57,514 nucleotides of DNA from a virus. The DNA is taken from positions 1 to 57,514 of IMG/VR virus record IMGVR_UViG_3300031920_000146. One strand, given 5' to 3'. The translations under genes and the position numbers were made by a program. Shown one piece after another: positions 10,428 through 57,514 of this stretch (positions are counted from its first letter, which is position 1; every line of letters starts with the position of its first letter). The notes under the pieces are model-generated. The model was given only the letters and a program-made list of their open reading frames with translations. It ran no database searches and was not told the DNA's origin.

Positions 10428-10777
10428 TATAATGAATGCACGTTTGATTTATTATCAGCCCCATTAACATTAATTCCAACTATCATATAGTTATCGTTAA
10501 AATTAGTAACTCTAAGTATTCTACCTTTCATGGCATGCCATACCTTGCCATTCCATGCATCCCTACCAAGGCTCTTAACGCGACCAAAATTAGATACACA
10601 ATAAAATCCTTCAAACTCCTTCACATCCCTCCATTCTTCCTCAATTCCAAACCAAACTTTAGCTGCTCTAATTAAAACAGGTAAAAACTCATTTTGATTT
10701 CTTCCGGTATCAAACATTTTACGGAACCATCCTGAATAGATCTTAGCAATTTCTTCTTCTTTAAACTTTGATTTCAT
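10427..10777 (-). CDS. NUMOD4-domain fragment of the same homing endonuclease
   Basis: WRDVKEFEGFYCVSNFGRVKSL is a NUMOD4 motif. The ORF ends ..NVHSL*, one nucleotide out of frame with the HNH ORF. Confidence 0.65.
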   Translation of the reverse strand: MKSKFKEEEIAKIYSGWFRKMFDTGRNQNEFLPVLIRAAKVWFGIEEEWRDVKEFEGFYCVSNFGRVKSLGRDAWNGKVWHAMKGRILRVTNFNDNYMIVGINVNGADNKSNVHSL

Positions 10778-13799: not shown

Positions 13800-14165
13800 T
13801 ATTCAAGTTTTAATACCAACAAAGCTAATCAATCAAAAGAGTTAAATCAAATCAATAATATCTATCAAAGTAAAATCCCTATAGACAATACACACTCCGA
13901 TTTTTTTTTACCGCGCGCCAAAACCGCAATCCATTTCTTCTACACACAAAAAGGAAAAGAATTTTTTTTCTGAAAAGCAAACAATACGAAGAATATACTA
14001 ATCTAACATCAATTTGGAATTATTCAATCTAATTAAGATACTTAAAACTAAGGAAGTGTTGAGAGGTTGCATGAAGGAGTGGAATACCATAACTACTAAT
14101 GAATATACAAGCCAATAGGACTAAAAGGGTTTTGAATTTGGGGGCGGTGGGGTACGTGTCCGGGC

Positions 14166-15452: not shown

Positions 15453-15471
15453 TCAAAGTTATAGCTAAAAT
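15453..15471 (-). promoter_or_regulatory. Late promoter-like box (minus strand ATTTTAGCTATAACTTTGA) 28 nt upstream of the terS ATG
   Basis: Near copy of the 8161 and 53509 boxes, with the same TAACTTTG core. Confidence 0.45.
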
Positions 15472-15761
15472 TGATTACTACAAAATATATTATAGTTTTT
15501 CTTTATTGGGCGCTTCGCGCCGGGGAATTCTTTTTTTTCTTTTTTTCTTGTTGTCTCTATTGGGTAACGGTAGAACATTAATGTTGATCACTCGTTAAAT
15601 AGTAAGATAGTATTATTCATGTGAAAATAGTATCATATTGTTGTTTGGTCCACTTCAATCACTTGATATTTAATAAATATTATCTATGTTATTGCTTGAA
15701 TTCTCTTTATTTCCAGCTAACGTTTATACATTTGTATAAATATATTTTGTATTTTTGTTAT

Positions 15762-23389: not shown

Positions 23390-23638
23390 ATGGAATCAAA
23401 CAGAGAATTAGCCGAAAGATTAGTTAAAGATTGCCTTGAGAACAACGTAGTTAAAAGAACTAAATCAGAAATGGAAAATCATTTAGAAGATAGTATTACG
23501 TGGGCGATGAACGATGCTTTTAGGATAATAAAAAACATTGAAAAAACCTCTTTAGACAATATGGATAGAGCAACCAGATTTATAAGGCTTGAAGAAAAAT
23601 ATGGAATACCAAAAACTCATTTAATATTAAAACAATGA
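23390..23638 (+). CDS. Hypothetical protein (82 aa)
   Basis: ATG at 23390 within the track ORF. Confidence 0.5.
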   Translation: MESNRELAERLVKDCLENNVVKRTKSEMENHLEDSITWAMNDAFRIIKNIEKTSLDNMDRATRFIRLEEKYGIPKTHLILKQ

Positions 23639-24759
23639 TCAAAAAAGAACAATTATTAGAAGACTTAAAATTCAAATTCAATGGTGATGGATTCGAATGT
23701 GTCGGATGCCCAAAAGCATTAAAATTCACATTCGATGAGTTAAAAAACATGACAGATGATATGTTTGTCAAAACCATGCAAGAGCATGAAAAACACCATG
23801 TAATTGGATTTGGAGAGGCTTACATGAAATTACATTCGCCAGAAGTAAAATCTGTTGCGAATAAAACAGTAGTCAAAAAGAATATCCCTACTCCTGCCGC
23901 AAATAAAGTGGCAGCAAAAATCACTGAGCCTAAAGTTCCTGCAAAGGTAGCACCGCCGAAAGCTGCTTTACCTCAAAAGTTAATTGATGCCGGATTGCAA
24001 AGAGTTTTACTTCAGCCAAAACAGGCGTTTATAGCAGCCGGAGGAACAGAGCAGCAATTTGCAAAAGAAATTAATTTTGCTGTTCAGCATCTAATGAAAA
24101 ATGATTTCATACTTGGATGTGCTCAACGAAATCCCGAATATTTAGTTGAAGCCGTAAAGAACATAGCATTAACCGGACTTACGTTAAACCCGGAATTAAA
24201 ACTTGGATATTTAGTTCCTAGGAGTGGCAAAATTTATTTCTCGTCTTCTTATATGGGAAAAAGAGAAATTGTAAATCGAACTGGGCATGTAAGAGATTCA
24301 TTTGCTTCTTTAGTTTATGAAAAAGATGTTTTTGAAATTCAAAAGGGAACTAATCCGAGTATAAAGCACATCCCTAATCCTTGGGGAGAGAAAGGCGAAT
24401 TAATGGGTGGATATTGGGTATGTGAGCTTTCTAATGGTTCAAAGTCTTTCGACACCATGACCAAAGAAAGGATCGATGAAATAAAGGCAAAATCAGAATC
24501 GGTAAAAGCAGGAGGTCAGTCTCCGTGGAAAACAGATTTTGAAGAAATGGCTCTTAAAACAGTTTACAATTGGGGCTTTAAGTTCATGCCCAAAACTGGA
24601 TTATCACCAGATCAAGTAACTGCGTTAACCATTGAATCAAAATATGATAATGAAGTTTTTGAAGAATGGATAAAGGAACAAGATAAAAAAGCTGAAATGT
24701 TTGACGATGATGGCCCGGCAGGTGAAAACCAAATAATAGATATTAAAGCCGAGGACTAA
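23635..24759 (+). CDS. recT: RecT-family single-strand annealing protein with ~110-aa N-terminal extension
   Basis: The C-terminal two thirds look RecT-like (..LGYLVPRSGKIYFSSSYMGKREI..GGYWVCELSNGSK..MTKERIDEIK..SPWKTDFEEMALKTV). Confidence 0.75.
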   Translation: MIKKEQLLEDLKFKFNGDGFECVGCPKALKFTFDELKNMTDDMFVKTMQEHEKHHVIGFGEAYMKLHSPEVKSVANKTVVKKNIPTPAANKVAAKITEPKVPAKVAPPKAALPQKLIDAGLQRVLLQPKQAFIAAGGTEQQFAKEINFAVQHLMKNDFILGCAQRNPEYLVEAVKNIALTGLTLNPELKLGYLVPRSGKIYFSSSYMGKREIVNRTGHVRDSFASLVYEKDVFEIQKGTNPSIKHIPNPWGEKGELMGGYWVCELSNGSKSFDTMTKERIDEIKAKSESVKAGGQSPWKTDFEEMALKTVYNWGFKFMPKTGLSPDQVTALTIESKYDNEVFEEWIKEQDKKAEMFDDDGPAGENQIIDIKAED

Positions 24760-29846: not shown

Positions 29847-30450
29847 TAAATTAATTGAACTAACACCGGAAGTTTCAGCTACATTAAAAATCGGAATTTT
29901 CAATACTGGAAAATCAATGGTTCCTGATTTCATATTAAGTGAAGATATGAAAATTGTATTTAATAGCTTATTTTTATATTTTACCGGAAATGGAGGATAC
30001 GACATGAGTAAAGGAATTTATCTTTATGGCGAGTTCGGAGTAGGTAAAACAATCACCATGTCGATTTTTAGTAGATTTTTAGCCACTTTCTTTCCATTCA
30101 GTGCGAATGGGTTCGGAATAACCTCAGTTGAGAAGATATCTGAGTCCTATAGGGATAATGGCAATATTGCAAAATATGGCAGGAATACTGAAGATAACAA
30201 ACCTTTTAATCTTTGCATCAACGAATTCGGAAAGCCAATTGACGAGAAATTCTATGGGACAAATATTCAGTATGTAATTAACTCAATGTTAATGGCCAGA
30301 TATGAAATATTTCAGGAAAAAAAGATACTAACTCATGCAACTAGTAATTTCCATCCTGGTAAATTAGATTGTTTCGACAGTGCACTGATGGATAGATTCA
30401 AGGAAATGTTCAATTTTATAGAAATTAAAGGGGATAGTTTTAGGAAATAA
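29776..30450 (+). CDS. DnaC/IstB-like AAA+ helicase loader
   Basis: Walker A YLYGEFGVGKT. The start is uncertain (ATG 29776, or 29818/29821); it overlaps the upstream gene either way. Confidence 0.6.
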   Translation: MKKLDEILRNHQSQMMEGGKSIVNKLIELTPEVSATLKIGIFNTGKSMVPDFILSEDMKIVFNSLFLYFTGNGGYDMSKGIYLYGEFGVGKTITMSIFSRFLATFFPFSANGFGITSVEKISESYRDNGNIAKYGRNTEDNKPFNLCINEFGKPIDEKFYGTNIQYVINSMLMARYEIFQEKKILTHATSNFHPGKLDCFDSALMDRFKEMFNFIEIKGDSFRK

Positions 30451-31070: not shown

Positions 31071-31322
31071 ATGGAACGATTTTATAAACAGGTGGAAGAT
31101 TTAGAAAAAGAAAAAGCACAAGAATTGTATAAAGAGATTTGTGCTGAGATTATTGAAAAAAATGGATTAAAAAATACAGCAATAGAAATGCTGACTAATT
31201 TTTGTGATGCTCGTATAAGAGAGCAAATTGAATTAGATAGAAATAGAGATTATTTAACAAAAGTTGCTCCAATTTGGAAAGGAATAAAAAGGGCTGTTAC
31301 AATTATTGGTAATGGAGTCTAA
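31071..31322 (+). CDS. Hypothetical protein (83 aa)
   Basis: The stop TAA is the first triplet of a boundary motif (TAATGGTAAATTGTAAG). Confidence 0.55.
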   Translation: MERFYKQVEDLEKEKAQELYKEICAEIIEKNGLKNTAIEMLTNFCDARIREQIELDRNRDYLTKVAPIWKGIKRAVTIIGNGV

Positions 31323-31393
31323 TGGTAAATTGTAAGTTGACATTTTCCGTTGAAATACCGATAGAATTAGTAAATAACATAAATTTTAAAATT

Positions 31394-31762
31394 ATGATAG
31401 CAAAGGCATTGAAGAACTTTGGTGGACACATGGTATTTTTAGTAGGATTAAGTAGTGGAGTTAGTACATGGGTTTATTACGATGAATATTGGTTAGGTAT
31501 AACACTTATTGTGCTTGGCTACTTTCTTAGCTGTGTTGTACGTGCGATGGCAGCCAGTTATCAGACACCTACAGGCAAATGCAATAAACATATTGTTAGC
31601 GGTTCGGTGCTTTCTGACAAAGAGCTGGAAGAACATATTTGGGAAGAGATAGAACTTCCACTATCAAATACTGATAAAATACTAAATACAGATAGCTATA
31701 AAAAATACTTGGATGTTGTTGAATGGGCGAAGTTCGGGCGCGATTATCGCACTGACCGCTAA
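31394..31762 (+). CDS. Membrane protein (122 aa)
   Basis: ATG at 31394 is preferred, because 31322..31393 matches the intergenic repeat unit. Two TM-like segments. Confidence 0.5.
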   Translation: MIAKALKNFGGHMVFLVGLSSGVSTWVYYDEYWLGITLIVLGYFLSCVVRAMAASYQTPTGKCNKHIVSGSVLSDKELEEHIWEEIELPLSNTDKILNTDSYKKYLDVVEWAKFGRDYRTDR

Positions 31763-31834
31763 TGGTTTGGCTAAGTACTTACCGCTGATGAATAACCGAA
31801 GCATTATAAACGAGATATAATTAAACACTTTAGT

Positions 31835-32071
31835 ATGGATAACAACGAAATTTTAAAACAACTTGAAGACTTATTGATAATTACTTGTGAATCAGAAAAA
31901 AGAGAGATTAGTAAATACCTAAAGTTGTTAAGCGAAGGCAAACAGAAACCAACGAACGATAGCAGTAGTTGTACTATCTGCAACAAAGAAACTGCTTCCG
32001 TTTGCGAAAAGTGTTTAGCTACACATTATAGTACAACTACCGCTAACGTTAAATGTATGCGCTGTATGTAG
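31835..32071 (+). CDS. Cys-rich small protein (78 aa)
   Basis: CTICNKETASVCEKC...CMRCM. Confidence 0.5.
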   Translation: MDNNEILKQLEDLLIITCESEKREISKYLKLLSEGKQKPTNDSSSCTICNKETASVCEKCLATHYSTTTANVKCMRCM

Positions 32072-32143
32072 CGCAGCGAAATATGGCGTATGACATAGTG
32101 TTATATGCTTTTATTAATAATTTTTTAAATAAATAATACAGAT

Positions 32144-32422
32144 ATGGAACAATTAAATTTAACACCAAAGGAACTAAAAAAAATAGGATTTACCCAATTA
32201 AAAATAGAGGGTAACGAAATGAATAAGCCAAAAACAATTTATAAGATTGACTTTATAAATGGATATATTTATTGTAATCCAAATGAAAAGATATACAAGT
32301 GGTATCACAAAACAATATTAGGAGATGCGGCTAATTATATTCATTTAGATATAACTAATAGACCTATATTATATACGCTACTAAGTTGTTTAAATATAGA
32401 TTATGAGCTAGTGATGGTTTAA
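32144..32422 (+). CDS. Hypothetical protein (92 aa)
   Basis: ORF in the cassette array. Confidence 0.55.
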   Translation: MEQLNLTPKELKKIGFTQLKIEGNEMNKPKTIYKIDFINGYIYCNPNEKIYKWYHKTILGDAANYIHLDITNRPILYTLLSCLNIDYELVMV

Positions 32423-32458
32423 TTGCATATAATGGTTTGTGTATGAAATTTAAAATTT

Positions 32459-32659
32459 ATGGATATGAAAAATGAAGACATTAAGGTGGCATGTGAACAT
32501 CTATTCACAGTTATTAAAATGAGTGAAGATAAATTAAGTGAAATCAGAAAGATATGTAAACATGAAAAAACGTATGAAGGTAATTACTCGTGGCGACCGG
32601 GGGCAATACAACTTGCAGACATTTGTGAGTATTGTGGTGAATTGGTACAGTATAAGTAA
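32459..32659 (+). CDS. Cys-containing small protein (66 aa)
   Basis: ..CKHEKT...CEYCGE. Confidence 0.5.
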   Translation: MDMKNEDIKVACEHLFTVIKMSEDKLSEIRKICKHEKTYEGNYSWRPGAIQLADICEYCGELVQYK

Positions 32660-32700
32660 TAAATTTTATTTTTTATACACCTTGTTATAAATTGAAAATT

Positions 32701-32793
32701 ATGAGGAAAATACTTAATAGAATATTGGACGTTATAGCAATAATTTCACTCGCATATATAATACTGTATGCCGTGATAATTTTTTGTTTATAA
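32701..32793 (+). CDS. Tiny membrane peptide (30 aa)
   Basis: MRKILNRILDVIAIISLAYIILYAVIIFCL; the stop is the TAA of TTATAACGGTTTGTG. Confidence 0.35.
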   Translation: MRKILNRILDVIAIISLAYIILYAVIIFCL

Positions 32794-32838
32794 CGGTTTG
32801 TGTTTGTTTTGGAATTTTACGAATTTAAAACTACGAAT

Positions 32839-33171
32839 ATGATTAACGAAAATGTAACAAAAGTACTAGACCAGTTGAAATACATAGCTGAATTTGAAGA
32901 AAGCAAAAACGGAAATAAAGGGCATGTAATATGGAGCTATAACTTTTACAAGCTATCACAAGCTATAGTAAAATTATTAAATAAACATATTATTATGCCT
33001 TCGTTTGCGGAATTAAAGGAAATGAGGTTAAAAACTAGATACAGTATGCGACAAATAAGTAAAAAAACAGGAGTAAGTACCCCAACGATAAGCCGTATAG
33101 AAAAAGGGAATAATGCTGAATACCAGAACGTTAAAAAATTATACGAGTTTTATGTAGCAAATGAGGCATAA
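32839..33171 (+). CDS. XRE-type HTH protein (110 aa)
   Basis: C-terminal MRQISKKTGVSTPTISRIEKGNN. ATG at 32839 (the track start is a GTG inside the boundary motif). Confidence 0.55.
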   Translation: MINENVTKVLDQLKYIAEFEESKNGNKGHVIWSYNFYKLSQAIVKLLNKHIIMPSFAELKEMRLKTRYSMRQISKKTGVSTPTISRIEKGNNAEYQNVKKLYEFYVANEA

Positions 33172-33214
33172 TGGTTGGCTAAGTTTTGAAGTTTTAACGT
33201 AAAAAAAATAGATA

Positions 33215-33478
33215 ATGACAACAGAAGATTATTTTAACCAAGACGATTTACTTGCTACAAGTAAAGTACCAAAAGAGATACGAAGATTTACATACTTCGA
33301 TTTATTAAAGTTCGCTGAATATTACCACAGAAGTGAGTTAAAGCTTTTAAATTTAGACTTTGCTAGCAAGCGAAGCGAACTGTTAATTGGCTTTATGGAA
33401 GATTTACGAAAAAACGGAGAACTACCAGAGTTGCTGAGCATTGAAAAAAGAGCTGCGAATTATTCAGCCAATTTATAG
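33215..33478 (+). CDS. Hypothetical protein (87 aa)
   Basis: ORF in the cassette array. Confidence 0.55.
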   Translation: MTTEDYFNQDDLLATSKVPKEIRRFTYFDLLKFAEYYHRSELKLLNLDFASKRSELLIGFMEDLRKNGELPELLSIEKRAANYSANL

Positions 33479-33564
33479 TTGCTGACGGTAAATTGTAAGT
33501 GCTGACCGCTGTTAGATTACCGAAAGAATTTGAAACGAGAATAAAAATTATAAATTACCGAGCG

Positions 33565-33945
33565 ATGGACATGAAAAAATTAGAATACACAGAAACACAA
33601 CACACTGGAAACCACGGAGATTTCCAAAACGTAATTATACAAGTAAAATTCATGGGAATTAACTTTTACCAACCAGCCAAAATGAAAAGTATATTTAACT
33701 ACAGCTACAGGTTGGCAAAATGGAGAATATTAAGGAATATTAAGCAAGTAATTAAGGGAGACATATTTGAACAGTGGGATGGCAAAGGGTATTCTACGGG
33801 CGCAAGCGGTTTGGATTTACACTTTGTTACCCAGCGAAGCGAACAGTTAAGCGATTTTGAGAAATGGCTTAACGACAAAGAGTACGATTCAATGTGGACT
33901 AAACATTTAATTAGCGAATATAAAAAATTGCTTAATTGTGGGTAA
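33565..33945 (+). CDS. Hypothetical protein (126 aa)
   Basis: ATG at 33565; the upstream part of the track ORF is the intergenic repeat. Confidence 0.5.
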   Translation: MDMKKLEYTETQHTGNHGDFQNVIIQVKFMGINFYQPAKMKSIFNYSYRLAKWRILRNIKQVIKGDIFEQWDGKGYSTGASGLDLHFVTQRSEQLSDFEKWLNDKEYDSMWTKHLISEYKKLLNCG

Positions 33946-34079
33946 CGTTCCGGCTAAGAATAGTGGGCCGCGTAGATACCAATAATGATAAAAATAGTTA
34001 TATAAATTACTAATAAACAAGGACTTAAATGTGGGCCACGCCCATTATTTTTAGACTTTGTTACAAACTTTTAAAAATT

Positions 34080-34295
34080 ATGGATTACAAGACATTGACA
34101 CAACAATCAGACCATAATGCAGCTATTGAAAGAGAAGAATATAACTTATTTGCTACGATAAAGCCAAAACTTTACAAAGATGGCAACCAGTGGTGTTGCT
34201 TATATGGTGAAGATTTGCAGGTTGGAATTGCTGGTTTTGGCGATACACCATGGTTCGCAATAATGGATTGGAACAAAGGATGGCGTAAGCTATAA
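34080..34295 (+). CDS. Hypothetical protein (71 aa)
   Basis: ATG at a fixed distance after ACTTTGTTACAAACTTTTAAAAATT. Confidence 0.5.
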   Translation: MDYKTLTQQSDHNAAIEREEYNLFATIKPKLYKDGNQWCCLYGEDLQVGIAGFGDTPWFAIMDWNKGWRKL

Positions 34296-34411
34296 TTTTA
34301 TTTGTTTATAATGGTTTGGTTAAGTTTTGAAGCCTAACCACAAACGATTAAATTTAGTATAAACTTTACATAGGCTTTTAAATATAGCTTTTGTTATAAA
34401 CTTTTAAAATT

Positions 34412-34561
34412 ATGGATTTATTAAATGATGATACATCAATGACAGTAAGATGTGAAAACTGCGGATGGGAAGGTTACGATGATGAATTAATTAAAAACGA
34501 TGAATTTAGTAATGAAACTTATATGTATTGCCCGACTTGTTTAAGCGATAGAATTGAATAA
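34412..34561 (+). CDS. Zinc-ribbon mini-protein (49 aa)
   Basis: ..RCENCGW...YCPTCL; hand-translated; preceded by CTTTTGTTATAAACTTTTAAAATT. Confidence 0.45.
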   Translation: MDLLNDDTSMTVRCENCGWEGYDDELIKNDEFSNETYMYCPTCLSDRIE

Positions 34562-34682
34562 TTTTTATTGTTTATATAACGGCTCGTGCAAGAATAGTGG
34601 CGATTAACGCACGAAATTAGATTGAAAGAATACAGTAAAAAAGAAAAAAAGGGAGGGTTTTCTTCTCTTAAAAACTAAGAAT

Positions 34683-35546
34683 ATGAAAAACAAATTTAAA
34701 AACAATTGCTGTGATGGAATATATAACAGCTTTGATGTACACTTTACAAGTGCCTGTGATAATAAATGCGCACATTGTATTGATATGAAATACTCTGGTT
34801 TTGATATTAAGAAACCTGATATTAACGCAATTGCAAAAACTATAATCGACAAGCAAGAAGGTTATAATGATGTTTTATTTTTAGGTGGAGAACCTTGTTT
34901 ATATTTACAAGAGTTGATTGACTGCATTAAGCTTGTGAAAGCAAAAACTAAGCTTAAAATATTTGTAACTACTGCCGTGCCAAAAATATGCCACGATAGA
35001 ATTGATTTATTCACAGAGCTTATTGCTTTGGTTGATGGAATGAATTTAAGCGTACAAAGCCACAATGAAGCTGTTGCAGATGAAATAAGGAAGGTTAAAA
35101 GTAAATATGACAGGCAATCTTTTTACAACAACCTACCAAGTAAAGAGAAGATTAGAATTAACCTTAATATTGTAAAGCCCTATTTATACAAAAAAGAGGA
35201 TATTGAAGAGTGTTTACTGCATTACGATAAGATGGGATTTAACTCTATTAAAATAAGTGAAATACAACACGGAAAAGATTATTTTGTTTCTTTTGAAGAA
35301 ACATTTAATTTAAAGCTTGGTACACCTTATTTTAATGGATGCCAAAAATATTTAAAAATGAATGATTTGATACCAAACTTTAAAACTCCAGTACTACTAA
35401 AGAGAAGTTGCTTTATTTGCGAAAAAACGCTAAAAGCCTCTTTTATGGATGGTGTAAAAGTTTGCTCAAAATTATTTACAATAGCTAAGAAAAGCAACTA
35501 TGGAGTTGTTTATGAAAACGGATGTTTAACTAAAGGATGGAGGTAA
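34683..35546 (+). CDS. Radical SAM enzyme (subfamily undetermined)
   Basis: FTSACDNKCAHCID (CxxxCxxC), LFLGGEPCL, and five further Cys in the last ~75 aa (NGC, CFIC, KVC, NGC). Confidence 0.8.
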   Translation: MKNKFKNNCCDGIYNSFDVHFTSACDNKCAHCIDMKYSGFDIKKPDINAIAKTIIDKQEGYNDVLFLGGEPCLYLQELIDCIKLVKAKTKLKIFVTTAVPKICHDRIDLFTELIALVDGMNLSVQSHNEAVADEIRKVKSKYDRQSFYNNLPSKEKIRINLNIVKPYLYKKEDIEECLLHYDKMGFNSIKISEIQHGKDYFVSFEETFNLKLGTPYFNGCQKYLKMNDLIPNFKTPVLLKRSCFICEKTLKASFMDGVKVCSKLFTIAKKSNYGVVYENGCLTKGWR

Positions 35547-35551
35547 AAATT

Positions 35552-35638
35552 ATGTACACAAGAATTTTAAGAAAAGTTGCAAACGCCATTGAAGCAATGG
35601 CAGGACACTGCGGAGGCAGTACGGGACATTGTTCCTAA
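35552..35638 (+). CDS. Unannotated 28-aa His/Cys-rich peptide (candidate precursor peptide)
   Basis: MYTRILRKVANAIEAMAGHCGGSTGHCS. GGAGG sits 8 nt upstream of the ATG, inside the end of the rSAM gene. The ATG starts 5 nt after the rSAM stop, and terminator-like hairpins follow. Confidence 0.4.
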   Translation: MYTRILRKVANAIEAMAGHCGGSTGHCS

Positions 35639-35643
35639 CCAAA

Positions 35644-35685
35644 TTGGCTTGCAAAGCCAAAAGAGCGGTGGCTTTTTCTTTTTGG
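35644..35685 (+). terminator. Tandem hairpins plus T-run after the rSAM/peptide pair
   Basis: TTGGCTT-gca-AAGCCAA, then AGCCA-aaagagcgg-TGGCT followed by TTTTCTTTTT. Confidence 0.5.
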
Positions 35686-35917
35686 TAAATTAGCACGAAA
35701 CTCGATTGAAACACAGCGCATTACCTATATATGGTGTTGTGCGCTGTGCTTTCTCTTCTAAAAAGTGATAAGATTCAAAATTAAAACCTATTCGCTTTTT
35801 AGGGGCATTGCGCACAACGGTTTGTGTATGCATAGTGCGCTTTTGAATTACGCACAGAAGTAAAAACGAAGATAACCAGCTCCGCATACGGTGTGCGAGG
35901 GCATAAAATTAAATAAG

Positions 35918-36163
35918 ATGATAAACAATGACTTATTAAAGGAGTTCAACGCCTTACAAAACGATGTTGAAAAGTGGAAATGGGTTAAAGAACATCAGCA
36001 CACTGGCATAGTTATTATGCTGGATAATGATGATACGTTTGGTCAACTTCCCGACCAAGAAGACCCTGATGATATTCTGATATTCCAATTCGATGATTAT
36101 ATTGGATACGGAGGTGTTGAAGAGTTGTTAAAAGCTTACGGCATTAAATCAGAGGGTGTGTAG
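35918..36163 (+). CDS. Strongly acidic small protein (81 aa)
   Basis: About 18 D/E versus 6 K by hand count; DNDDTFGQLPDQEDPDD. Confidence 0.55.
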   Translation: MINNDLLKEFNALQNDVEKWKWVKEHQHTGIVIMLDNDDTFGQLPDQEDPDDILIFQFDDYIGYGGVEELLKAYGIKSEGV

Positions 36164-36231
36164 GCAAAAGCCAAATACGAGAGCCAGCGCATTATGTATG
36201 ACACTTTGTTATAGGCTTTTAAAATTACGGG

Positions 36232-36537
36232 ATGAAAAAAGAAAAATATTACTTTAAACGTAGTGACTCTGAGATTTGCAGAACAGTAGCTTATTTTGAT
36301 AGCTATATGCAGCAAAACAATTTAACAGAGATTGAAGTATTTGAAGCTGAGCCTGAAATTATAGGCGGTGGTATATTTTGGTGTAAGGAGCATTTGTTTT
36401 GCGGTGATGGAACGACAGACACCTGTGGTAAAAAGAATTGTAAAGACTACGAGCCACGAAACAAAATAAGCGGTGTATGTAAACACCACACCCATAGACT
36501 ATATACACACGGCAATAAAGTTACATTACGATTGTAG
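36232..36537 (+). CDS. Cys-rich protein (101 aa)
   Basis: ..WCKEHLFCGDGTTDTCGKKNCKDY...GVCKHH. Confidence 0.55.
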   Translation: MKKEKYYFKRSDSEICRTVAYFDSYMQQNNLTEIEVFEAEPEIIGGGIFWCKEHLFCGDGTTDTCGKKNCKDYEPRNKISGVCKHHTHRLYTHGNKVTLRL

Positions 36538-36683
36538 CAATTTTTATTGTCTATAACGTTGAATGTATGTGTAGTACAGCCTTGCACATATTTTCAACCT
36601 TAAATTAAACTTAATTGGCTGTATTACATATACATATTGTTAGCGTTTCGTTTTTGAGCGTTGGCATTTTAAAACTTAAAGCT

Positions 36684-36863
36684 ATGGCAGAATATTGCGA
36701 AGATTGCGGATGTAAAGTGTACGGTAATGGATGCACTAATTGTAATGAAGAGTTATATATACTCGACCAATACGATGAACTTGAAATGGAAAGACCAAGT
36801 GAGGACACGGATTTTATGAAGAAAGCACGTGAACAGCAAGAGTGTTTGGCAAATGAACGCTAA
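36684..36863 (+). CDS. Acidic zinc-ribbon mini-protein (59 aa)
   Basis: MAEYCEDCGCKVYGNGCTNCNEE.., then an acidic tail. Confidence 0.5.
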   Translation: MAEYCEDCGCKVYGNGCTNCNEELYILDQYDELEMERPSEDTDFMKKAREQQECLANER

Positions 36864-37027
36864 CGTTGCAGCGTATGTTGCGTTGCCAATTTAACCACGA
36901 AATTTTGATACGAGAACGTCTGTAATAATTATTTTTAGGGAGGTTCTTTTTTGTTTTAATAAATAGTTGGTAATTAGTAAATAATTACTATATTTGTAGG
37001 GTAATTATAAATTTAAACACTGAAACG

Positions 37028-37351
37028 ATGAAAACAAGAGATTACTTTACAGAAAAAACGAATGAGCTTGCACAGGAATTAAAAGCTGATATAATAGAAA
37101 GAACAAAAGAATTTATCGGTGATACATTTATGAATGATGACGAAAGCAATGCCATTGGATTCTTTAATCATATTTCCGATAGTGACGATACCGGGATGAT
37201 ATACAGCATCTATTTTGGTAAAGAGGAAATTACAATTTACCCGGGTGCAGAAGATTTATGCGAATATCATCTTTCTGATATTATGGATGTACATGATTTG
37301 CTTTTATTGCACTACATAGTTTCTTCTGATAATTTTAAAAACGAAATTTAA
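37028..37351 (+). CDS. Acidic hypothetical protein (107 aa)
   Basis: ORF in the cassette array. Confidence 0.55.
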   Translation: MKTRDYFTEKTNELAQELKADIIERTKEFIGDTFMNDDESNAIGFFNHISDSDDTGMIYSIYFGKEEITIYPGAEDLCEYHLSDIMDVHDLLLLHYIVSSDNFKNEI

Positions 37352-37521
37352 TGACAAAAGAAAAAACAAAAGCGGTTACATTATCGCTTACCAAAAGTGA
37401 AGAACAGGACTTAATTGATATTTCAAAAAAGCTCTTTGGGAAATCAAATAAAAGCGGAATGATTCGCTATTGGCTGAATCAAAATAGGCTTGAAAAGCCT
37501 ACAGCGGGATGGCAAAAATAA
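37351..37521 (+). CDS. Ribbon-helix-helix (CopG/Arc-like) protein (56 aa)
   Basis: KAVTLSLTKSEEQDLIDISKKLFGKSNKSGMIRYWL. The start overlaps the previous stop (TAATG). Confidence 0.5.
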   Translation: MTKEKTKAVTLSLTKSEEQDLIDISKKLFGKSNKSGMIRYWLNQNRLEKPTAGWQK

Positions 37522-37564
37522 TTATGGGCTTAACCCAGAAAAGTTAAATCGAAGTACTGAACCA

Positions 37565-37714
37565 GCAATGCAATATTACGCATTGTTAGCAAACGAAAGT
37601 GAACTGTTATTTGCTTTTTTTATGTGGTTTCGAGAGAATGGGGAAAAATACATGAATGAAAGTATTGAGAAAATGATTCAGACATACTTGAAAAGCAAAT
37701 TATAGTTGCTAACG
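37565..37714. repeat. Perfect 150-bp direct repeat, copy 1 (copy 2 at 39680..39829)
   Basis: Base-by-base identical on reading both copies. Confidence 0.9.
37568..37705 (+). CDS. 5'-degraded paralogue of ORF 39638..39820 (45 aa from internal ATG)
   Basis: The 3' 138 nt are identical to the other copy. The upstream homologous region (ATGGGCTTAACCCAGAAAAGTTAA) hits a stop after 7 codons. Confidence 0.35.
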   Translation: MQYYALLANESELLFAFFMWFRENGEKYMNESIEKMIQTYLKSKL

Positions 37715-37799
37715 TTCCGTGTAAGAATAGTGGCGTTATAAGGTAGAATTTTAGTTTGAAAGAATACAGTAATAAATTAATTTTTTAGGGAGGGTTTTT

Positions 37800-38708
37800 A
37801 TGTTTTCTAAGGTAAATAAAGATAATCCGGTTATTTGTTGGTTTAGCGGTGGAATCACAAGCGCACTGGCTTGCTATTTAACGATTCAGTTATTTGGTAA
37901 AGAAAATTGCCGTGTGATATTTATGGACACCTGCAATGAAGATGATGATACATATCGTTTTATGCGAGACTGTGAGAAGTGGTATGGAATGCCAATTGAA
38001 CGGATTACGCTTATAGGTAAGGATATTGTAACAAAAAAGAGAACGGTTGTTTATGATAGCATACAGGACGTTTGGCGTAAGAATTTGAGCTTGAATGTTG
38101 CTAATGGTGCAATTTGCTCAAGTATATTAAAACGAGATTTGCGAAAGTACTGGCAAAAGGAGAATGTTTATTCGTTCCAGATTTTCGGATTTGATATTGA
38201 CGAACCAAAACGAGCTAAATCGTTTACGCTAAATTACCCAGAAGCAAACCCATTTTATCCTTTACTTATGCTTGGGTACTCAAAGAAAATGTGCATTGAT
38301 GAAGTTGTTGCTGCTGGTATTGAAATACCATTAGCTTACAAGTTAGGATTGCACAACAATAATTGCCTAAAGACACTTTGTATACAAGGAGGAATTGGAT
38401 ATTGGCAGAAAGCGGAAAGGGAAATGCCTGCCAAGTTTGACACAATGGCAGATATGGAACATGAGCTAACTGACTTGAAAGGAAAGCCAGTGACAATGTT
38501 GAAAGACCAAAGCAAAAACGGAGGTTTAGTATTCTTAAAACCACACCCTGACTATCCAGACATGAAGGATATTTCTATGATGAAAGGTAGGGAACCAAAA
38601 CCGCTGACAGATTGTAATGGTTTTTGTGGAGTTAATGACTTGGAAAGGAATAGCACTGAAGATGAAATTAACTACGAACCAAATCCAAAACAACTTTTTC
38701 AAAGTTGA
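37800..38708 (+). CDS. PP-loop ATPase, PAPS-reductase-like family
   Basis: VICWFSGGITSALACYL (SGGxxS PP-loop), then VIFMDTCNEDDDTYRFMRDCEKWYG about 20 aa later, as in PF01507-type proteins. Confidence 0.6.
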   Translation: MFSKVNKDNPVICWFSGGITSALACYLTIQLFGKENCRVIFMDTCNEDDDTYRFMRDCEKWYGMPIERITLIGKDIVTKKRTVVYDSIQDVWRKNLSLNVANGAICSSILKRDLRKYWQKENVYSFQIFGFDIDEPKRAKSFTLNYPEANPFYPLLMLGYSKKMCIDEVVAAGIEIPLAYKLGLHNNNCLKTLCIQGGIGYWQKAEREMPAKFDTMADMEHELTDLKGKPVTMLKDQSKNGGLVFLKPHPDYPDMKDISMMKGREPKPLTDCNGFCGVNDLERNSTEDEINYEPNPKQLFQS

Positions 38709-38797
38709 AGCGCGAGGGCAAATTAATTTATGGGACAACGCAGACAGTAAACTATGAAAAACGGACAGCCATTATTTTTGCACTTTGTTATAAACTT

Positions 38798-38883
38798 TTG
38801 GCGCACCTTCGGGGTGTCGAGTTGCACACGGAAAAATCAGATGCGCACTGAAAGCAACATAAGAAACTTAATTCTTGCGCCAA
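38798..38883 (+). other. Inverted-repeat-bounded 86-nt noncoding insert X1 (candidate sRNA or miniature element)
   Basis: TTGGCGCA (38798..38805) pairs with TGCGCCAA (38876..38883). The interior is homologous to X2. The insert lies between a start-proximal motif and a boundary motif. Confidence 0.35.
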
Positions 38884-38946
38884 TTGTTTTATAACGGTTT
38901 GTGTATGAAAATGTAAAATTATGATTTTAACCTAAAAAAGTAACAA

Positions 38947-39156
38947 ATGGATACACTGTTTAATATACCACCGAAAGTAAGCGAACCACGTAAAGAACGC
39001 TGCAAACATTGTAAGTACTTTACGTGGTTAGAATATAATTACCCTGTAAAAAAGTTCTTTTATTGCAAGCTAAGAAAGAGTAACCGAACAGATAACGGAC
39101 TGTTGAAAATTAAGGCTAACCAAGTGGCTTGCGATGGATACGTACACAGTAAATAA
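38947..39156 (+). CDS. Cys-containing small protein (69 aa)
   Basis: ..RCKHCKYF...CKL...ACDGY. Confidence 0.5.
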   Translation: MDTLFNIPPKVSEPRKERCKHCKYFTWLEYNYPVKKFFYCKLRKSNRTDNGLLKIKANQVACDGYVHSK

Positions 39157-39201
39157 TTTTATTTTTTATACACTTTGTTATGCATTTTTAAAAATAATGG
39201 A

Positions 39202-39360
39202 ATGAAACACTTCGTAAAAGAATGCACCTGTGAGCAATGCAGGTACGTTAAAAATAAACGCAAAAACAGAAAGAACAAAAAACGTATAAAACGAATGCTT
39301 AACAAGAAACGCAGAAAGGCGAAAGATGGGGACAAACCCATTATTTTTTATTGGGCATAA
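39202..39360 (+). CDS. Very basic Cys-containing mini-protein (52 aa)
   Basis: MKHFVKECTCEQCRYVKNKRKNRKNKKRIKRMLNKKRRKAK.. Confidence 0.45.
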   Translation: MKHFVKECTCEQCRYVKNKRKNRKNKKRIKRMLNKKRRKAKDGDKPIIFYWA

Positions 39361-39438
39361 CGCCTGGCGTATGTCGCGTTGCGAAATAAACCACTAAAAT
39401 TTGATACGAGATACACAGTAATAATTAAATATTTTGAC

Positions 39439-39624
39439 ATGGATAAGATAAAATTTGTATGCGAACACTGTAACCACAGTATGGATATTGAAATAACTAA
39501 GGAAATGCCACACGGTACAGTTGCTGGATGGTGTAACTACTGCCCTAAGTGCGAAGATGAAATGGGCGACTATTACGATGAATGGTTTGTTGATGAGAAT
39601 GACAATGTACTTGAATTGTGCTAA
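39439..39624 (+). CDS. Zinc-ribbon mini-protein (61 aa)
   Basis: CEHCNH...CNYCPKCEDE. Confidence 0.5.
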   Translation: MDKIKFVCEHCNHSMDIEITKEMPHGTVAGWCNYCPKCEDEMGDYYDEWFVDENDNVLELC

Positions 39625-39637
39625 AAAATATTTAATT

Positions 39638-39820
39638 ATGGAAATTACAGACAAAAGTAAAAACGAAACTACAAACCAAGCAATGCAATATTACGCATTG
39701 TTAGCAAACGAAAGTGAACTGTTATTTGCTTTTTTTATGTGGTTTCGAGAGAATGGGGAAAAATACATGAATGAAAGTATTGAGAAAATGATTCAGACAT
39801 ACTTGAAAAGCAAATTATAG
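39638..39820 (+). CDS. Hypothetical protein (60 aa), intact paralogue of 37568..37705
   Basis: MEITDKSKNETTNQAMQYYALLANESELLFAFFMWFRENGEKYMNESIEKMIQTYLKSKL. Confidence 0.5.
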   Translation: MEITDKSKNETTNQAMQYYALLANESELLFAFFMWFRENGEKYMNESIEKMIQTYLKSKL

Positions 39821-39829
39821 TTGCTAACG
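39680..39829. repeat. Perfect 150-bp direct repeat, copy 2
   Basis: Identical to 37565..37714. Confidence 0.9.
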
Positions 39830-39964
39830 GTTATTGTATGAATAGTAGCCGATTTAAGCACATAATTAAGTAGATACAAAATAAATTAATTACATAGTAA
39901 TAGCTTTTAAAAAGACACCTTAACGGGCTATTATTTATACAAATTGTTAGGGTGCGTTTTTGAT

Positions 39965-40123
39965 ATGGAAAAAGAAATTAGAATAAATGTAGTTGCACCA
40001 GTAGAGTGTACAGACGAACAGTTCCAAGAATGGTGTGAATACTGTTTAGGATATAGAGGCGGTATAAGTGTAGACAACCCATTACACGAATACGATTTAG
40101 AAGCTACTTACGTGGATATTTAG
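39965..40123 (+). CDS. Hypothetical small protein (52 aa)
   Basis: Hand-translated MEKEIRINVVAPVECTDEQFQEWCEYCLGYRGG... Flanked by AGGGTGC / GCACCCT inverted repeats. Confidence 0.4.
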   Translation: MEKEIRINVVAPVECTDEQFQEWCEYCLGYRGGISVDNPLHEYDLEATYVDI

Positions 40124-40209
40124 TCTAATGCACCCTAACGTTGCGTGCAAGTTATCGTAACGATGCCGGAATACAAACGAATTTAATTTAAAACACAAAA
40201 ATAGAAATT

Positions 40210-40593
40210 ATGAAAATTTTGATTAGAAAAATTAGTTATGCAATTTGCATTGTGTTATTAACCTGTGCTTTTTGCCTTGCACAGGATTTAGCTATGAGCA
40301 TAAACGGTGGAGATTTAACAGTATATGCCACCAATACCACTGAACAAAAAAGCGCAGGCAGTGATACGACCATAATAAAGCTGATGATTGAATACAAAAC
40401 TGAATGCTACAATGATAGCACTTATGTAGAGTGGCTTAAAATAAACGAATCACCATCATATACAGATGCTATAACAGGAATGACATCGGCGTTGAGTATA
40501 TTTATTTCACCGACCTTGATAAAAGAGTGGCAACACAAAGAACCTACGTTTAAAGACTTTGTGCGTTGGGTGGCAAAAAAGTATGGTTTATAA
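40210..40593 (+). CDS. Secreted or lipid-anchored hypothetical protein (127 aa)
   Basis: MKILIRKISYAICIVLLTCAFCLAQ signal-like N-terminus. Confidence 0.55.
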   Translation: MKILIRKISYAICIVLLTCAFCLAQDLAMSINGGDLTVYATNTTEQKSAGSDTTIIKLMIEYKTECYNDSTYVEWLKINESPSYTDAITGMTSALSIFISPTLIKEWQHKEPTFKDFVRWVAKKYGL

Positions 40594-40626
40594 CGGTCTG
40601 TACATGAATTTTAAAAAACGGATAAA

Positions 40627-40827
40627 ATGAAACAAAGTATTAAATGTTGTGACTGCTTCGCCAAAATGAGGCATCACTTTGATTGGTTTAGTTACCAAAA
40701 TGATAGTAAGCAAAAAATTTACTGTATGCCAAATCTGAAAAGTTGTGACGGACATACAAAGTTGAGCATTAACCACTGCCCAAGTTGCGGCAAGGAAATA
40801 AGGAACATAGAACTAATTGACGAGTAG
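40627..40827 (+). CDS. Zinc-ribbon small protein (66 aa)
   Basis: CCDC...CPSCGKE. Confidence 0.5.
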   Translation: MKQSIKCCDCFAKMRHHFDWFSYQNDSKQKIYCMPNLKSCDGHTKLSINHCPSCGKEIRNIELIDE

Positions 40828-40860
40828 TTTTTTATTATTTATGTACTTTGTTATTAATTG

Positions 40861-40942
40861 GCGTGGCGCTGTGAAAATCAAAGCAGAAGAATGTAAGCAA
40901 TGAGTAAGACTTGCACCTACCGTAAAAGCCGTTCCGCCACGC
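40861..40942 (+). other. Inverted-repeat-bounded 82-nt noncoding insert X2
   Basis: GCGTGGCG (40861..40868) pairs with CGCCACGC (40935..40942). The flanking motif arrangement is the same as for X1. Confidence 0.35.
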
Positions 40943-41060
40943 TTATTTATAACGGTTTGTGTATGTTTAGTAGCGTCAAATCCCGCTCCGCTGCTGATTA
41001 AATGCACCGAACTGTCTTGTTTTAAATTTTTGGGCGGGGTTTATTCTTAAATTTTTAATC

Positions 41061-57300: not shown

Positions 57301-57514
57301 CTGCGGCTGCTACATTTTTAGCTGCGGCAATCCATTCTGCGATATCTTTCTTTTGGTCTGCTAATTTTTTCTTGGCTGCTGCCCTCCTGTCTCTGTCAGC
57401 TTTTTTCTCGAATGTTGCCACCCTCTTTGCGGCTGCAATCCAATCAGACATATTCTTTTTCTGGTCTGAAGTTTTCTTTTTATCTGCGGCTGCTACATTT
57501 TTAGCTGCGGCAAT
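54305..57514 (-). CDS. Tail tape measure protein, main body (continues upstream across the junction to ATG 316; about 1156 aa in total)
   Basis: Very long helical protein with an N-terminal K/A-rich repeat, core ..LGLKTDEVNGVFLALEQMISKGKVTTEELRRQLGERLPGAMG.., and a hydrophobic G/A-rich segment near the C-terminus. The frame stays open to the window end. Confidence 0.85.
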   Translation of the reverse strand: MAAAKNVAAADKKKTSDQKKNMSDWIAAAKRVATFEKKADRDRRAAAKKKLADQKKDIAEWIAAAKNVAAADKKKTSDQKKNMSDWIAAAKRVATFEKKADRDRRAAAKKKLADQKKDIAEWIAAAKRVAAFEKKAARDKSMADKKEESARKKKTSGLKNLVRSVGIYAAAMFGLNRIVQFFTRDLLNMTKKLDSLDFSMRTIIKDTKEYAATNIFLTKTVINYGQDILTLTERYIKFRAASMQSNMSARETMKIFNSTAKAAAVLGLKTDEVNGVFLALEQMISKGKVTTEELRRQLGERLPGAMGIMADAVGVSIVELDKMLKAGSVLSTEALPKFAVALEKAYGIESLNRVNNLAAAHGRLKTSWVKFVDELQASSVYISVIDEINDQIVKLRWTLGMVNELGGLEGLSDSIGKGANEIVDYFDKIEDVGKSPLADMKNLNAWIAKMKEIGVGMDTASKAFEQYVERRKSLMDADKEGASIKPFSFDVYEKELDKAEKDTKSFANQTSKGLKDSLISTNDFMSKGIVTYEAVLIQQEKELVLKQKNNKKSLDAIKITRDFLLLKKEQKGLSDKEQSNLDAISKNYETFSFKDIAFTEARIEVANRLAETNKKTGKDLFSIEKSQMELRIALKKVELDSLGELGDGGNVAEMKRGIELSKFIKDQNDELAKSANANAKQRIDTQKNAALAQSNVLSESLKRNTLIDKKFFDSSEEDFERFSDQKVASIFADADTQRVAIQKGYTQQILDAKNRASKIKAINIKLAVDLLTIEYNAQQAIIDSSITSVEAKEDAAEKQKQLEEKLQETVRKGTVETEKLKREELEKTFAFISENVNAGFNIQQQFSDNQLQRAKNRYERETQLAGDSEAAKLVAKRKFEAEERKIAKRQAKAAKAQAAFNIGLSTAQAIIGIWAQVPKFDFGISAGILTAVVGGIGAAQLAAVLAKPLPSFAEGVKNFEGGQAIVGDKKGDPTKAGGSELGILPSGQMFLTPSTPTVMNLPSGTDIIPNDGIASVLANEAMNSTYNMIDMSSTNSQLRQINKNTSESTTYEGNYKIVRRKGFVGRYKI
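57149..57514. repeat. Two exact 183-nt (61-aa) tandem repeat units in the TMP gene (57149..57331 and 57332..57514), plus a partial third at 57131..57148
   Basis: Offset of 183 nt measured between identical strings; protein unit MSDWIAAAKRVATFEKKADRDRRAAAKKKLADQKKDIAEWIAAAKNVAAADKKKTSDQKKN. Confidence 0.85.

Follow-up and report, generated by a model that had tools for sequence, protein, structure and literature searches.

A hairpin-forming element that bounds phage mini-genes points to an integron-like gene-shuffling system common to phages and their Bacteroidota hosts

Background

The phage locus described here has its closest bacterial counterpart in the rAID-1 arrays of Bacteroidales and its closest phage analogy in the PeSL motifs of T4-type phages, and its repeated sites resemble in many respects the attC sites of integrons. 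It lies between positions 31320 and 41007 of the IMG/VR virus record IMGVR_UViG_3300031920_000146 and consists of ~28 small open reading frames (ORFs) and ~21 copies or part-copies of one hairpin-forming element, all on the + strand. The window, by which we mean the whole stretch of 57,514 nt that was analysed, ends in a 55-nt terminal direct overlap (1-55 = 57460-57514) and thus represents a complete, circularly assembled genome of ~57.46 kb with 35% G+C.

In rAID-1, short genes of low G+C content lie in one orientation downstream of the gene of a XerD-family tyrosine recombinase, and their intergenic repeats are described as 'reminiscent of integrons' (Ross et al. 2019, 10.1101/471110; PMC12247911). 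The rAID-1 papers report close homologues of the recombinase from Bacteroidales and from no other group, make no mention of hairpins or phages and show the repeat only as an image (10.1101/471110; PMC12247911), and according to a 2025 preprint the way in which rAID arrays are built is not known and is actively studied (PMC12247911). Each PeSL motif joins an early sigma-70 promoter to a terminator-like stem-loop, and its proposed mode of action is homologous recombination (PMC2839356, PMC4122927). Clusters of attC-like sites can also be carried by virulent phages (Qi et al. 2023, PMC9892861). Among the sites of that survey, P12002L_attC1 of Polaribacter phage P12002L was predicted as an attC by HattCI, and when six phage sites were tried with IntI1, it alone was not recombined (PMC9892861). 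IntegronFinder has reported almost nothing in Bacteroidetes.

The repeated motifs are parts of one palindromic element

An initial annotation of the window had described three recurring modules in the spacers of this region, namely a stop-proximal motif listed at 19 positions (motif 1), a second block (block 2) and a start-proximal motif (motif 3). The motif array is confirmed as genuine. Motif 1 is present at all 19 positions, and TAAYGKTYNGNGYAWG, allowing up to one mismatch, has 15 matches against 0.50 expected, a number reached in 0 of 100 shuffles. Thirteen of the 15 lie on the + strand at 31.76-40.97 kb, and the remaining two (3184, - strand; 6233, + strand) resemble chance. Motif 3 in its full 24 nt has 3 matches at up to 3 mismatches against 0.00 expected, while its core AYAYNTTGTTA has 7 against 1.5, six of which are on the + strand within 31.5-39.2 kb. 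Two element copies had been overlooked, one at 32044 and a diverged one at 35636. As had also been stated, the motifs are missing from the late arm: a scan of both arms of the window found no element arm of either kind anywhere in the late arm or between 16 and 31 kb of the rightward arm, and the ~21 copies on the + strand at 31.3-41.0 kb have no counterpart elsewhere in the 57.5-kb genome.

The division into three separate modules does not stand. Motif 1 (TAACGGTTTGTGTATG) is the 5' arm and the first half of motif 3 (ATACACnTTGTTA) the 3' arm of a single imperfect palindrome, since ATACACnTTGTTA is the reverse complement of TAACGGTTTGTGTATG when G·T pairs are allowed; in viral flanks, (Y)ATACACnTTGTTA follows TAACGGTTTGTGTATG after 20-170 nt. 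Block 2 is located in the variable interior of the ~125-nt size class. Three to four good copies of it were found 15-40 nt after 5' arms, but TTGAWAYGAGAWAC, which is our own consensus version of this block, shows no genome-wide enrichment (7 versus 5.1). The unusual stop codon embedded in motif 1 is accounted for by the same anatomy: the motif is the outer box of a site that abuts the end of the upstream ORF, and, as read from the sequence, its TAA is the true stop codon of 9 of the ~20 upstream ORFs. The repeat is therefore one element and not three modules, and it links this phage to a very large and largely undescribed integron-like system.

The intergenic placement of the motifs, right after stop codons and ~18 nt before start codons, is what would be expected of per-gene promoters, one of the roles first suggested, or of intrinsic terminators for the host RNA polymerase. 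We regard the chance that they are either as close to negligible: sigma-70-like sites are at the level of shuffled sequence (53 versus 47.2), the Bacteroidetes -33/-7 consensus TTTG-N17-23-TAnnTTTG has no + strand match in the array, and the hairpins followed by T runs (15 versus 5.5) do not coincide with element ends. Block 2 was also considered as a promoter and rejected by eye, its spacing to TAnnTTTG-like sequence being unsuitable. The Bacteroidetes consensus has four exact - strand matches in the late arm (8163-8193, 10585-10615, 13820-13851 and 15454-15484); its total is at chance (6 versus 4.9), yet this late-arm placement looks meaningful.

Anatomy, covariation and strand bias

The 5' side of the element is formed by an outer box nnYAAC, a 5-nt spacer (GGTTT), an inner box GTGTATG and a second stem with a conserved AGT, and leads into a variable interior; the 3' side is formed by the return strand of the second stem with ATT, an inner box YATACAC, a 3-nt spacer and an outer box GTTRnn. 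The spacers are unpaired and asymmetric (5 nt versus 3 nt), the second stem holds a fixed G·T wobble, and the interior measures from ~10 to 150 nt or contains a whole ORF. Elements range in length from 47 to 191 nt and fall into size classes of 47-56, 82-91, 115-131 and 183-191 nt. In the 47-nt class the apical loop TCGTTTTAATG is conserved, being found in the loci L023, L032, L043, L044, L089, L090, L083 and L080 and in Polaribacter phage P12002L (L215, ~30000-30060).

Covariation was analysed for 23 proposed pairs in 126 distinct sites, nine of which come from the window and the others from viral and bacterial loci. Pairing is seen in 90.1% of cells of this alignment, compared with 69.6% in column shuffles, and there are 599 doubly compensated cells versus 214 in shuffles. 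The covariation score is 0.539; column shuffles give 0.164 (0 of 500 reach the observed value), and displacing the partners by 1-3 columns lowers it to 0.08-0.11. In the inner helix of 17 pairs, 93.6% of cells are paired and double changes occur at 14 pairs; a variant-arm subset was picked for at least 15 of 17 complementary inner-helix positions, which inflates the percentage paired and not the double-change counts, and an exact-arm subset was picked on the arms alone. The inner box GTGTATG/YATACAC has many compensatory variants. In the outer box, AAC and GTT are near-invariant and the next position outward covaries (columns 3/56: UA in 75, UG in 24 and CG in 8 of 126), giving boxes such as GCTAAC/GTTAGC, TACAAC/GTTGTA and GGTAAC/GTTACC. 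Two G·T wobbles are retained in 119 and 116 of the 126 sites.

The two strands do not fold equally well. Of the two, the TAACGG strand is the more stable in 73 of 77 genomic and 49 of 51 viral elements, and it was again the better folder in each of the five compact window elements that were folded as DNA. Searches of the window and of 18 loci against Rfam at gathering thresholds gave no match, nor did 31.0-41.4 kb match any family when E values up to 1 were allowed.

In layout the element resembles an integron attC site. The outer boxes nnYAAC/GTTRnn agree with the inverted R'' (RYYYAAC) and R' (GTTRRRY) boxes, and both kinds of site have a second inverted pair (L''/L' in attC), an unpaired spacer and a variable paired centre of very different lengths. 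In both, one strand folds better, arrays are co-oriented with one site per gene, and the stop codon often lies in the first box. Unlike in attC, the inner box, the spacers and the fixed G·T wobbles are specific to this family, the arms are far more conserved, and ORFs can sit inside a site. Nothing in the element could be equated with the extrahelical G and T that set strand choice in attC. A CALIN, that is, a cluster of such sites without an integrase, is matched by the window in having sites and no integrase, but there are ~21 sites here, whereas the phage CALINs of the published survey needed two predicted sites and its described example has three (Qi et al. 2023, PMC9892861).

The element family in bacteria and other phages

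The exact 16-mer TAACGGTTTGTGTATG occurs in 94 IMG/VR stretches, several contigs having multiple copies on the same strand. The genome collection has it in over 119 stretches, mostly from Flavobacteriaceae and other Bacteroidota. The published site P12002L_attC1 (TGCTAACGGCTACGGCTAAACGGTCGTTTTAATGCCGTTTTAGCCATTGTTAGGC) belongs to this family. A literature search for the 14-mer of the element returned no match, and among GenBank phages the sole match was one element of Cellulophaga phage phi19:3. In that phage a tyrosine recombinase, gp036, is encoded 500 nt from the element; it has no BLASTP match (E up to 1e-3) to the array recombinases described below and was treated as unrelated. No close cultured relative of the phage in the window was found, nor were relatives found with its AAA protein as query; its terminase is 37% identical to a cyanophage terminase. 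The viral contig L221 shares with the window the cassette leader described below and nothing else.

The bacterial arrays are regular, with one short gene per site, as in L151 (more than 10 cassettes in 8 kb), L164 and L124, and the cassettes of L124 and L164 include SMI1/KNR4 (SUKH) and barstar proteins. Six bacterial loci have a tyrosine recombinase gene at an array end; in each case it lies to the 3' side with respect to the folding strand and reads in the same direction as the cassette genes. The full-length array recombinases, those of L124 and L135, have 376-378 aa and the domains Phage_integrase (PF00589) and Phage_int_SAM_4 (PF13495). Compared with an approximate IntI1 sequence, the array recombinases are ~31% identical, and by eye they have no IntI-specific insertion. 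In L124 (5792-6424) and L135 (1044-1705), two small ORFs of 79-130 aa separate the recombinase gene from the first element; the one that was tested has no Pfam match, and they may represent accessory factors or the region of an insertion site.

Shorter homologues of the recombinase are encoded in three of the first viral loci, L005 and L083 with ~41% identity to those of L124/L135 and L081 with a related copy, and a search started from the recombinase protein found relatives in 473 viral stretches. Arms of the element are present in 74 of the 80 best of these viral loci. On the recombinase strand of the same 80 loci, 5' arms number 35 upstream versus 1 downstream and 3' arms 172 versus 26, with more downstream than upstream DNA having been scanned; matches on the opposite strand are balanced (31 versus 31). 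Because the same-strand arms sit upstream of the recombinase, many phages appear as a sense-oriented array of sites followed by a recombinase gene.

The bacterial arrays and the window relate differently to rAID-1. The Flavobacteriales arrays L124, L135, L151 and L164 fit the description of rAID-1, including the cassettes of SUKH-type immunity genes and, in L124 and L135, the PF00589 and PF13495 domains of the recombinase. The window resembles it in having ~28 co-oriented small ORFs, 35% G+C and ~21 repeats, and differs in that it has no recombinase, carries phage mini-genes and not orphan immunity genes, and has its sites in the reversed orientation.

Orientation separates the bacterial from the viral elements. 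Of 59 genome elements, 46 have flanking genes antisense to the folding strand, as in integrons; of 51 viral elements, 34 have them in the sense orientation and 14 more lie at convergent gene ends. This sense orientation, which is also that of the window, is where the phage sites depart from the bottom-strand rule of attC. Elements that enclose an ORF (210-900 nt) are likewise viral, making up 5 of 37 well-paired viral sites and 0 of 55 genomic ones; one of them, in L080, holds a DNA methyltransferase gene. The viral locus L016 and the chromosomal locus L145 of Lutibacter litoralis have elements of the 124-nt class with interiors that are 92% identical, in opposite orientation to the neighbouring genes. 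The window and its relatives cannot be assigned to attC proper, because no IntI is involved (the window encodes none, and the recombinases found elsewhere are XerD-like), because the folding strand is the sense strand in phages and because P12002L_attC1 was negative with IntI1.

The sense orientation could also indicate that the hairpins act mainly at the RNA level in the phage, in RNase III-like processing, in stability or in translational coupling or occlusion, and that the link to recombination is historical. Under this explanation the better-folding strand would be favoured because it is the transcribed one, the G·T wobbles would become G·U pairs, and it would matter that in three elements (E4, E16 and E20 of the map below) the 5' strand of the second stem, as read from the sequence, abuts the start codon. 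In bacteria, however, the same strand is favoured although the genes are antisense, so the folding bias is not imposed by mRNA there. In addition, the elements occur in the accessory mini-gene region and in none of the genome's other operons, and they have neither the U-tract signature of terminators nor, even at the most permissive threshold, an Rfam match. A mainly RNA-level role is for these reasons improbable in our judgement, and the strand bias favours a role at the DNA level, in a single strand, like that of the attC bottom strand.

Evidence for exchange at the sites

When elements with interiors at least 85% alike were compared, neither flank was alike in 81 genome pairs, 18 viral pairs and 1 viral-genome pair; both flanks were alike in 14 viral pairs, and one flank alone in none. 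Near-identical copies with unrelated flanks (the 81 genome and 18 viral pairs), together with terminal inverted repeats and discrete size classes, would also be expected of a selfish miniature inverted-repeat transposable element inserted between genes by a transposase encoded elsewhere. Correia elements and REP/BIME sequences are such short intergenic imperfect palindromes with conserved ends that are co-transcribed with neighbouring genes. The present element differs from them in that it makes no target-site duplication, has a uniform orientation within arrays and per type of replicon, occurs once per gene, and has as its associated enzyme a tyrosine recombinase at a fixed array end. Duplication of a target in the manner of transposons was excluded by the covariation of the terminal positions, which behave as a stem and not as a direct repeat. 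A transposable element of this kind is consequently very unlikely.

Several pairs of viral contigs share single units that are bounded by the element. In L001 and L083 the sole shared part is a 295-nt unit of arm, ORF and arm (98.7% identity), which begins at TAACGG and stops in the apical loop of the next small hairpin. That stop lies after TCG within a loop of the 47-nt class and hints at a second point of cleavage or exchange. The unit shared by L045 and L069 runs from TAAC to the next GCTAAC. In the window and the unrelated viral contig L259, the element E13 (36554-36642) and its leader are 94% identical starting at AAC, the ORFs that follow are unrelated, and the trailer TTGGCAAATGAACGCTAAC is again shared.

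The conserved frame around these variable ORFs consists of a cassette leader (36643-36683 in the window; GCGTTTCGTTTTTGAGCGTTGGCATTT...), common to cassettes with unrelated ORFs, and a cassette trailer (36845-36863; TTGGCAAATGAACGCTAAC), which encodes a C-terminal LANER and the stop codon. The 19-mer of the trailer is found without mismatch in 49 viral stretches. Twenty-five complete ORFs, belonging to 19 unrelated families, read into the trailer, and all of them end in the site-encoded ...LANER. The leader and trailer also share a direct repeat, GAGCGTTGGCA, that flanks unrelated ORFs. A direct repeat (GA)GCGTTGGCA was noted in the leader (36655-36668) and the trailer (36840-36850) around the variable ORF, and also in L045, L069, L061 and L259; a direct repeat in this arrangement is what site-specific insertion into a common core leaves behind.

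Comparison of breakpoints between relatives had been proposed as a check of the cassette idea, and some ends of segments shared between phages do coincide with the AAC of an element. In viral loci, 10 of 75 internal ends of homology fall no more than 10 nt from an arm, against 0 of 75 random positions. Recombination boundaries for cassette shuffling are the best fit among the roles first suggested, because the same element bounds cassettes in recombinase-associated arrays of bacteria and other phages and because shared segments start and stop at AAC. The part of that suggestion which did not hold is the choice of enzymes, since RecT, the exonuclease and the homing nucleases are not those most strongly tied to the element elsewhere; that enzyme is the XerD-like tyrosine recombinase.

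The main rival to exchange by such an enzyme is that trailer, arms and leader serve as short patches of homology at which the phage RecT and exonuclease swap ORFs during co-infection, as proposed for PeSLs, with no site-specific recombinase involved and with a palindrome inherited from the bacterial system or used otherwise. The window does encode a RecT (23635-24759; PF03837, E 2.5e-25) and a PDDEXK-like protein and no tyrosine recombinase, unrelated ORFs do lie between a conserved leader and trailer that share GAGCGTTGGCA, and breaks at the ends of conserved blocks are the trace that homologous recombination is expected to leave. The PeSL motifs of T4-type phages provide a precedent (PMC2839356, PMC4122927), being repeated intergenic stem-loops confined to small variable accessory ORFs (the hyperplastic regions of these phages) and coinciding with breakpoints in gene content. 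The element differs from PeSLs, however, in having no promoter and in being a long palindrome with covarying stems that is common to bacterial chromosomes and tied to a tyrosine recombinase. Homologous recombination alone leaves unexplained the covariation of the stems, the fixed G·T wobbles and the strand bias, as well as the uniform orientation and the tight polar association with a recombinase gene that 74 of 80 other phage loci show, and we hold it to be unlikely as the full explanation.

Proposed origin and working of the array

The preferred reading is that the region is probably a phage-borne gene-cassette array without a recombinase of its own, whose ~21 attC-like recombination sites would undergo exchange of hairpin strands by a XerD-like tyrosine recombinase. 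Its function would most likely be the gain, loss and shuffling of cassettes, either through a recombinase acting in trans or through RecT-mediated homologous recombination. When the folding (TAACGG) strand becomes single-stranded, the hairpin would present two recombinase-binding boxes, as in attC and in the attP of the CTX phage. A XerD-like tyrosine recombinase of the family found beside the bacterial and phage arrays would take the folded strand as its substrate and exchange strands at the AAC of the 5' arm, so that units of a site and its downstream gene could be excised, inserted and reordered. Exchange by this route in the window would need an enzyme supplied by the host or by a co-infecting phage, because the window encodes none; that the sites are active in this phage is likewise our interpretation. 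As an alternative route, RecT and the exonuclease could recombine conserved arms, leaders and trailers by homology. Sense-oriented sites would also be transcribed as stable hairpins, and an additional effect on mRNA is possible.

A comparable use of a folded strand is reportedly made by the CTX phage, the attP(+) hairpin of which is said to be recombined by XerCD at dif. That system has in common with the proposed one a Xer-type recombinase and a site that exists only when one strand folds as an imperfect hairpin, and differs in being a single site of a single-stranded genome that serves chromosomal integration, whereas here ~20 sites form a cassette array in a double-stranded DNA phage.

Several observations count against a cassette array that is worked by a site-specific recombinase. 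Although its genome is complete, the phage encodes no tyrosine recombinase. For eight 5' arms no partner could be detected, and a number of arms are degenerate, so the array may be decaying or inactive. Most homology ends between related viral contigs (65 of 75) lie away from arms, and none of the mosaic breakpoints inspected in L035/L052, L017/L029 and L010/L013 is at an arm, so the element is not the sole route of gene exchange. Homologous recombination that used the trailer or arm as a patch of homology would be just as likely to leave breakpoints at AAC. ORFs inside a site and 3' arms within coding sequence have no integron counterpart and are left unexplained by the model, as is the shared leader/trailer repeat. 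Recombination at the sites is deduced from comparisons of sequence. The only family member that has been assayed, P12002L_attC1, gave no recombination, in an assay that used IntI1 and not the cognate enzyme (PMC9892861).

More speculatively, and with less confidence than in the cassette array itself, it can be imagined that phages of Flavobacteriia and other Bacteroidota run an integron-like system of their own, composed of hairpin sites and a XerD-like recombinase without the IntI insertion. Such a system would be a second, independent realisation of the integron principle that uses the same site 'currency' as the rAID-type arrays of the hosts in mirror orientation, so that the cassette pools of phages and hosts could recombine and yet stay functionally separate; the phage in the window would draw its ~28 mini-genes from a pan-phage pool via recombinases in trans.

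If the cassette reading is right, the regions of ORFan mini-genes seen in many marine and gut Bacteroidota phages acquire a concrete mechanism of turnover, with defined cassettes and defined junctions. It would also supply the sequence and fold of the site that rAID-type arrays appear to use, making the assembly of these arrays testable by the strand-specific recombination assays used for attC (PMC9892861). One recombination site would then join phage accessory genes and bacterial immunity arrays, and the reversal of orientation would be a simple, checkable rule that any model of exchange between phages and bacteria must explain. Altogether the element points to an integron-like gene-shuffling system common to these phages and their Bacteroidota hosts.

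Map of the elements in the window

The elements were numbered E1 to E21 along the + strand. Partners were assigned by counting, in a fixed register, how many of 19 pairs two arms can form, with best-of-1576 backgrounds as the control. Pairing energies from RNAduplex, calculated for 18-nt arms, were rejected for this purpose because in this AT-rich DNA they did not set true partners apart from background. By the count, 12 of the 21 5' arms are paired to a 3' arm, and one more (E21) was paired by eye. On this map, every gene of the 31.3-41.0 kb region lies inside one element or between two.

Six elements are compact hairpins of 58-125 nt. E3 (32044-32103, 60 nt), one of the overlooked copies, has in its loop the stop codon of ORF 31835-32071. 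E8 (33943-34063, 121 nt) has the compensatory inner box GGCTAAG/TTTAGAC, E9 (34309-34396, 88 nt) forms 17 of 19 pairs, and E13, of 89 nt, forms all 19. E18 (39825-39949, 125 nt) is the element with a homologue in phage phi19:3 (~80% identity). E21 (40950-41007) has no outer 3' box, and together with its downstream flank is 82% identical to a stretch of the genome-collection locus L177.

Five elements enclose whole ORFs, with 15-17 of 19 pairs, the ORFs of four of them measuring 66-81 aa. The arms of E4 (32430-32687; 17/19 pairs) lie around a 66-aa ORF (32459-32659), those of E12 (35815-36211) around an 81-aa ORF (35918-36163), with the ATGACAC variant of the 3' arm, and those of E16 (38892-39180) around a 69-aa ORF (38947-39156). 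E20 (40591-40853; 17/19 pairs) encloses a 66-aa ORF (40627-40827) and has a doubly compensatory inner box, GTACAT/ATGTAC. In E15 (37710-38790) the arms and second stem lie around a 302-aa PAPS-reductase-like gene (37800-38708), with 17 of 19 pairs formed over 1.07 kb. An exact 151-nt duplicate on the + strand (37564-37714 = 39679-39829) ends in both copies 1 nt past the AAC of a 5' arm, that of E15 and that of E18.

In three further elements, the 3' arm lies in frame inside an ORF that starts in the loop. E2 (31760-32028; 16/19 pairs) has the 5' arm TAATGGTTTGGCTAAG and, in the next ORF, the 3' arm GTTTAGCT-ACA-CATTA, with the compensatory outer box TAATG/CATTA. The 3' arm of E6 (33169-33365; 17/19 pairs) falls within ORF 33215-33478, and that of E7 (33483-33829; 5' arm TGACGGTAAATTGTAAG; 16/19 pairs) within ORF 33565-33945.

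The remaining copies are incomplete or diverged. E1 (31320-31336) is a diverged 5' arm, TAATGGTAAATTGTAAG, for which no partner was found and whose TAA is the stop of the upstream ORF. E5 (32791-32806) and E19 (40136-40151) consist of a 5' arm only, the TAA of E5 being the stop of a 30-aa hydrophobic ORF. E10 (34577-34636), upstream of a radical-SAM gene, has a 5' arm, the 5' strand of the second stem and block 2, and no 3' partner was found for it. The strongly diverged E11 (35636-35739) has the 5' arm TAACCAAATTGG, a block-2-like interior and the 3' arm TATATATGGTGTTG. Two of the eight unpaired arms are 27-nt mini-hairpins followed by block 2, namely E14 (36861-36887; TAACG...CGTTG, then CCACGAAATTTTGATACGAGAAC) and E17 (39358-39384; TAACGC...GCGTTG, then TTGATACGAGATAC).

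Other features of the array

Eight ORFs of the array were scanned for domains, and these are radical-SAM, PAPS-reductase-like or helix-turn-helix proteins, or have no match. The radical-SAM gene (287 aa; PF04055) is directly followed by a 28-aa Cys-rich ORF (MYTRILRKVANAIEAMAGHCGGSTGHCS), the two spanning 34683-35638; judged from sequence, this looks like an enzyme and precursor-peptide pair carried as one cassette. A strong Shine-Dalgarno-like motif, TTTTTAGGGAGGKTYT, precedes three array genes, the ORF at 37028, the PAPS-reductase-like gene and the radical-SAM gene (36932-36947, 37782-37797 and ~34650, respectively), and it also precedes the PAPS-reductase-like homologue of the unrelated contig L051 (~1620-1640). 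Such a motif is odd for Bacteroidota, where initiation led by Shine-Dalgarno sequences is mostly lacking.

At 38794-38891, 40856-40949 and 35740-35814, the ~75-100 nt that separate a 3' arm from the following 5' arm hold no gene; each of these three gene-less 'cassettes' is closed by a G+C-rich stem of its own (GGCGCA...TGCGCC, GGCGTGGCG...CGCCACGC and TGCGC...GCGCA). They may be small RNAs or empty cassette frames; the folding z-scores of the two that were tested are not significant. Finally, two adjacent ORFs run through a 3' arm in the same frame (33345-33400 and 33815-33860) and then share the sequence L-x-L-x-F-x-x-x-R-S-E-x-L, the arm and its flank having been turned into coding sequence in both.

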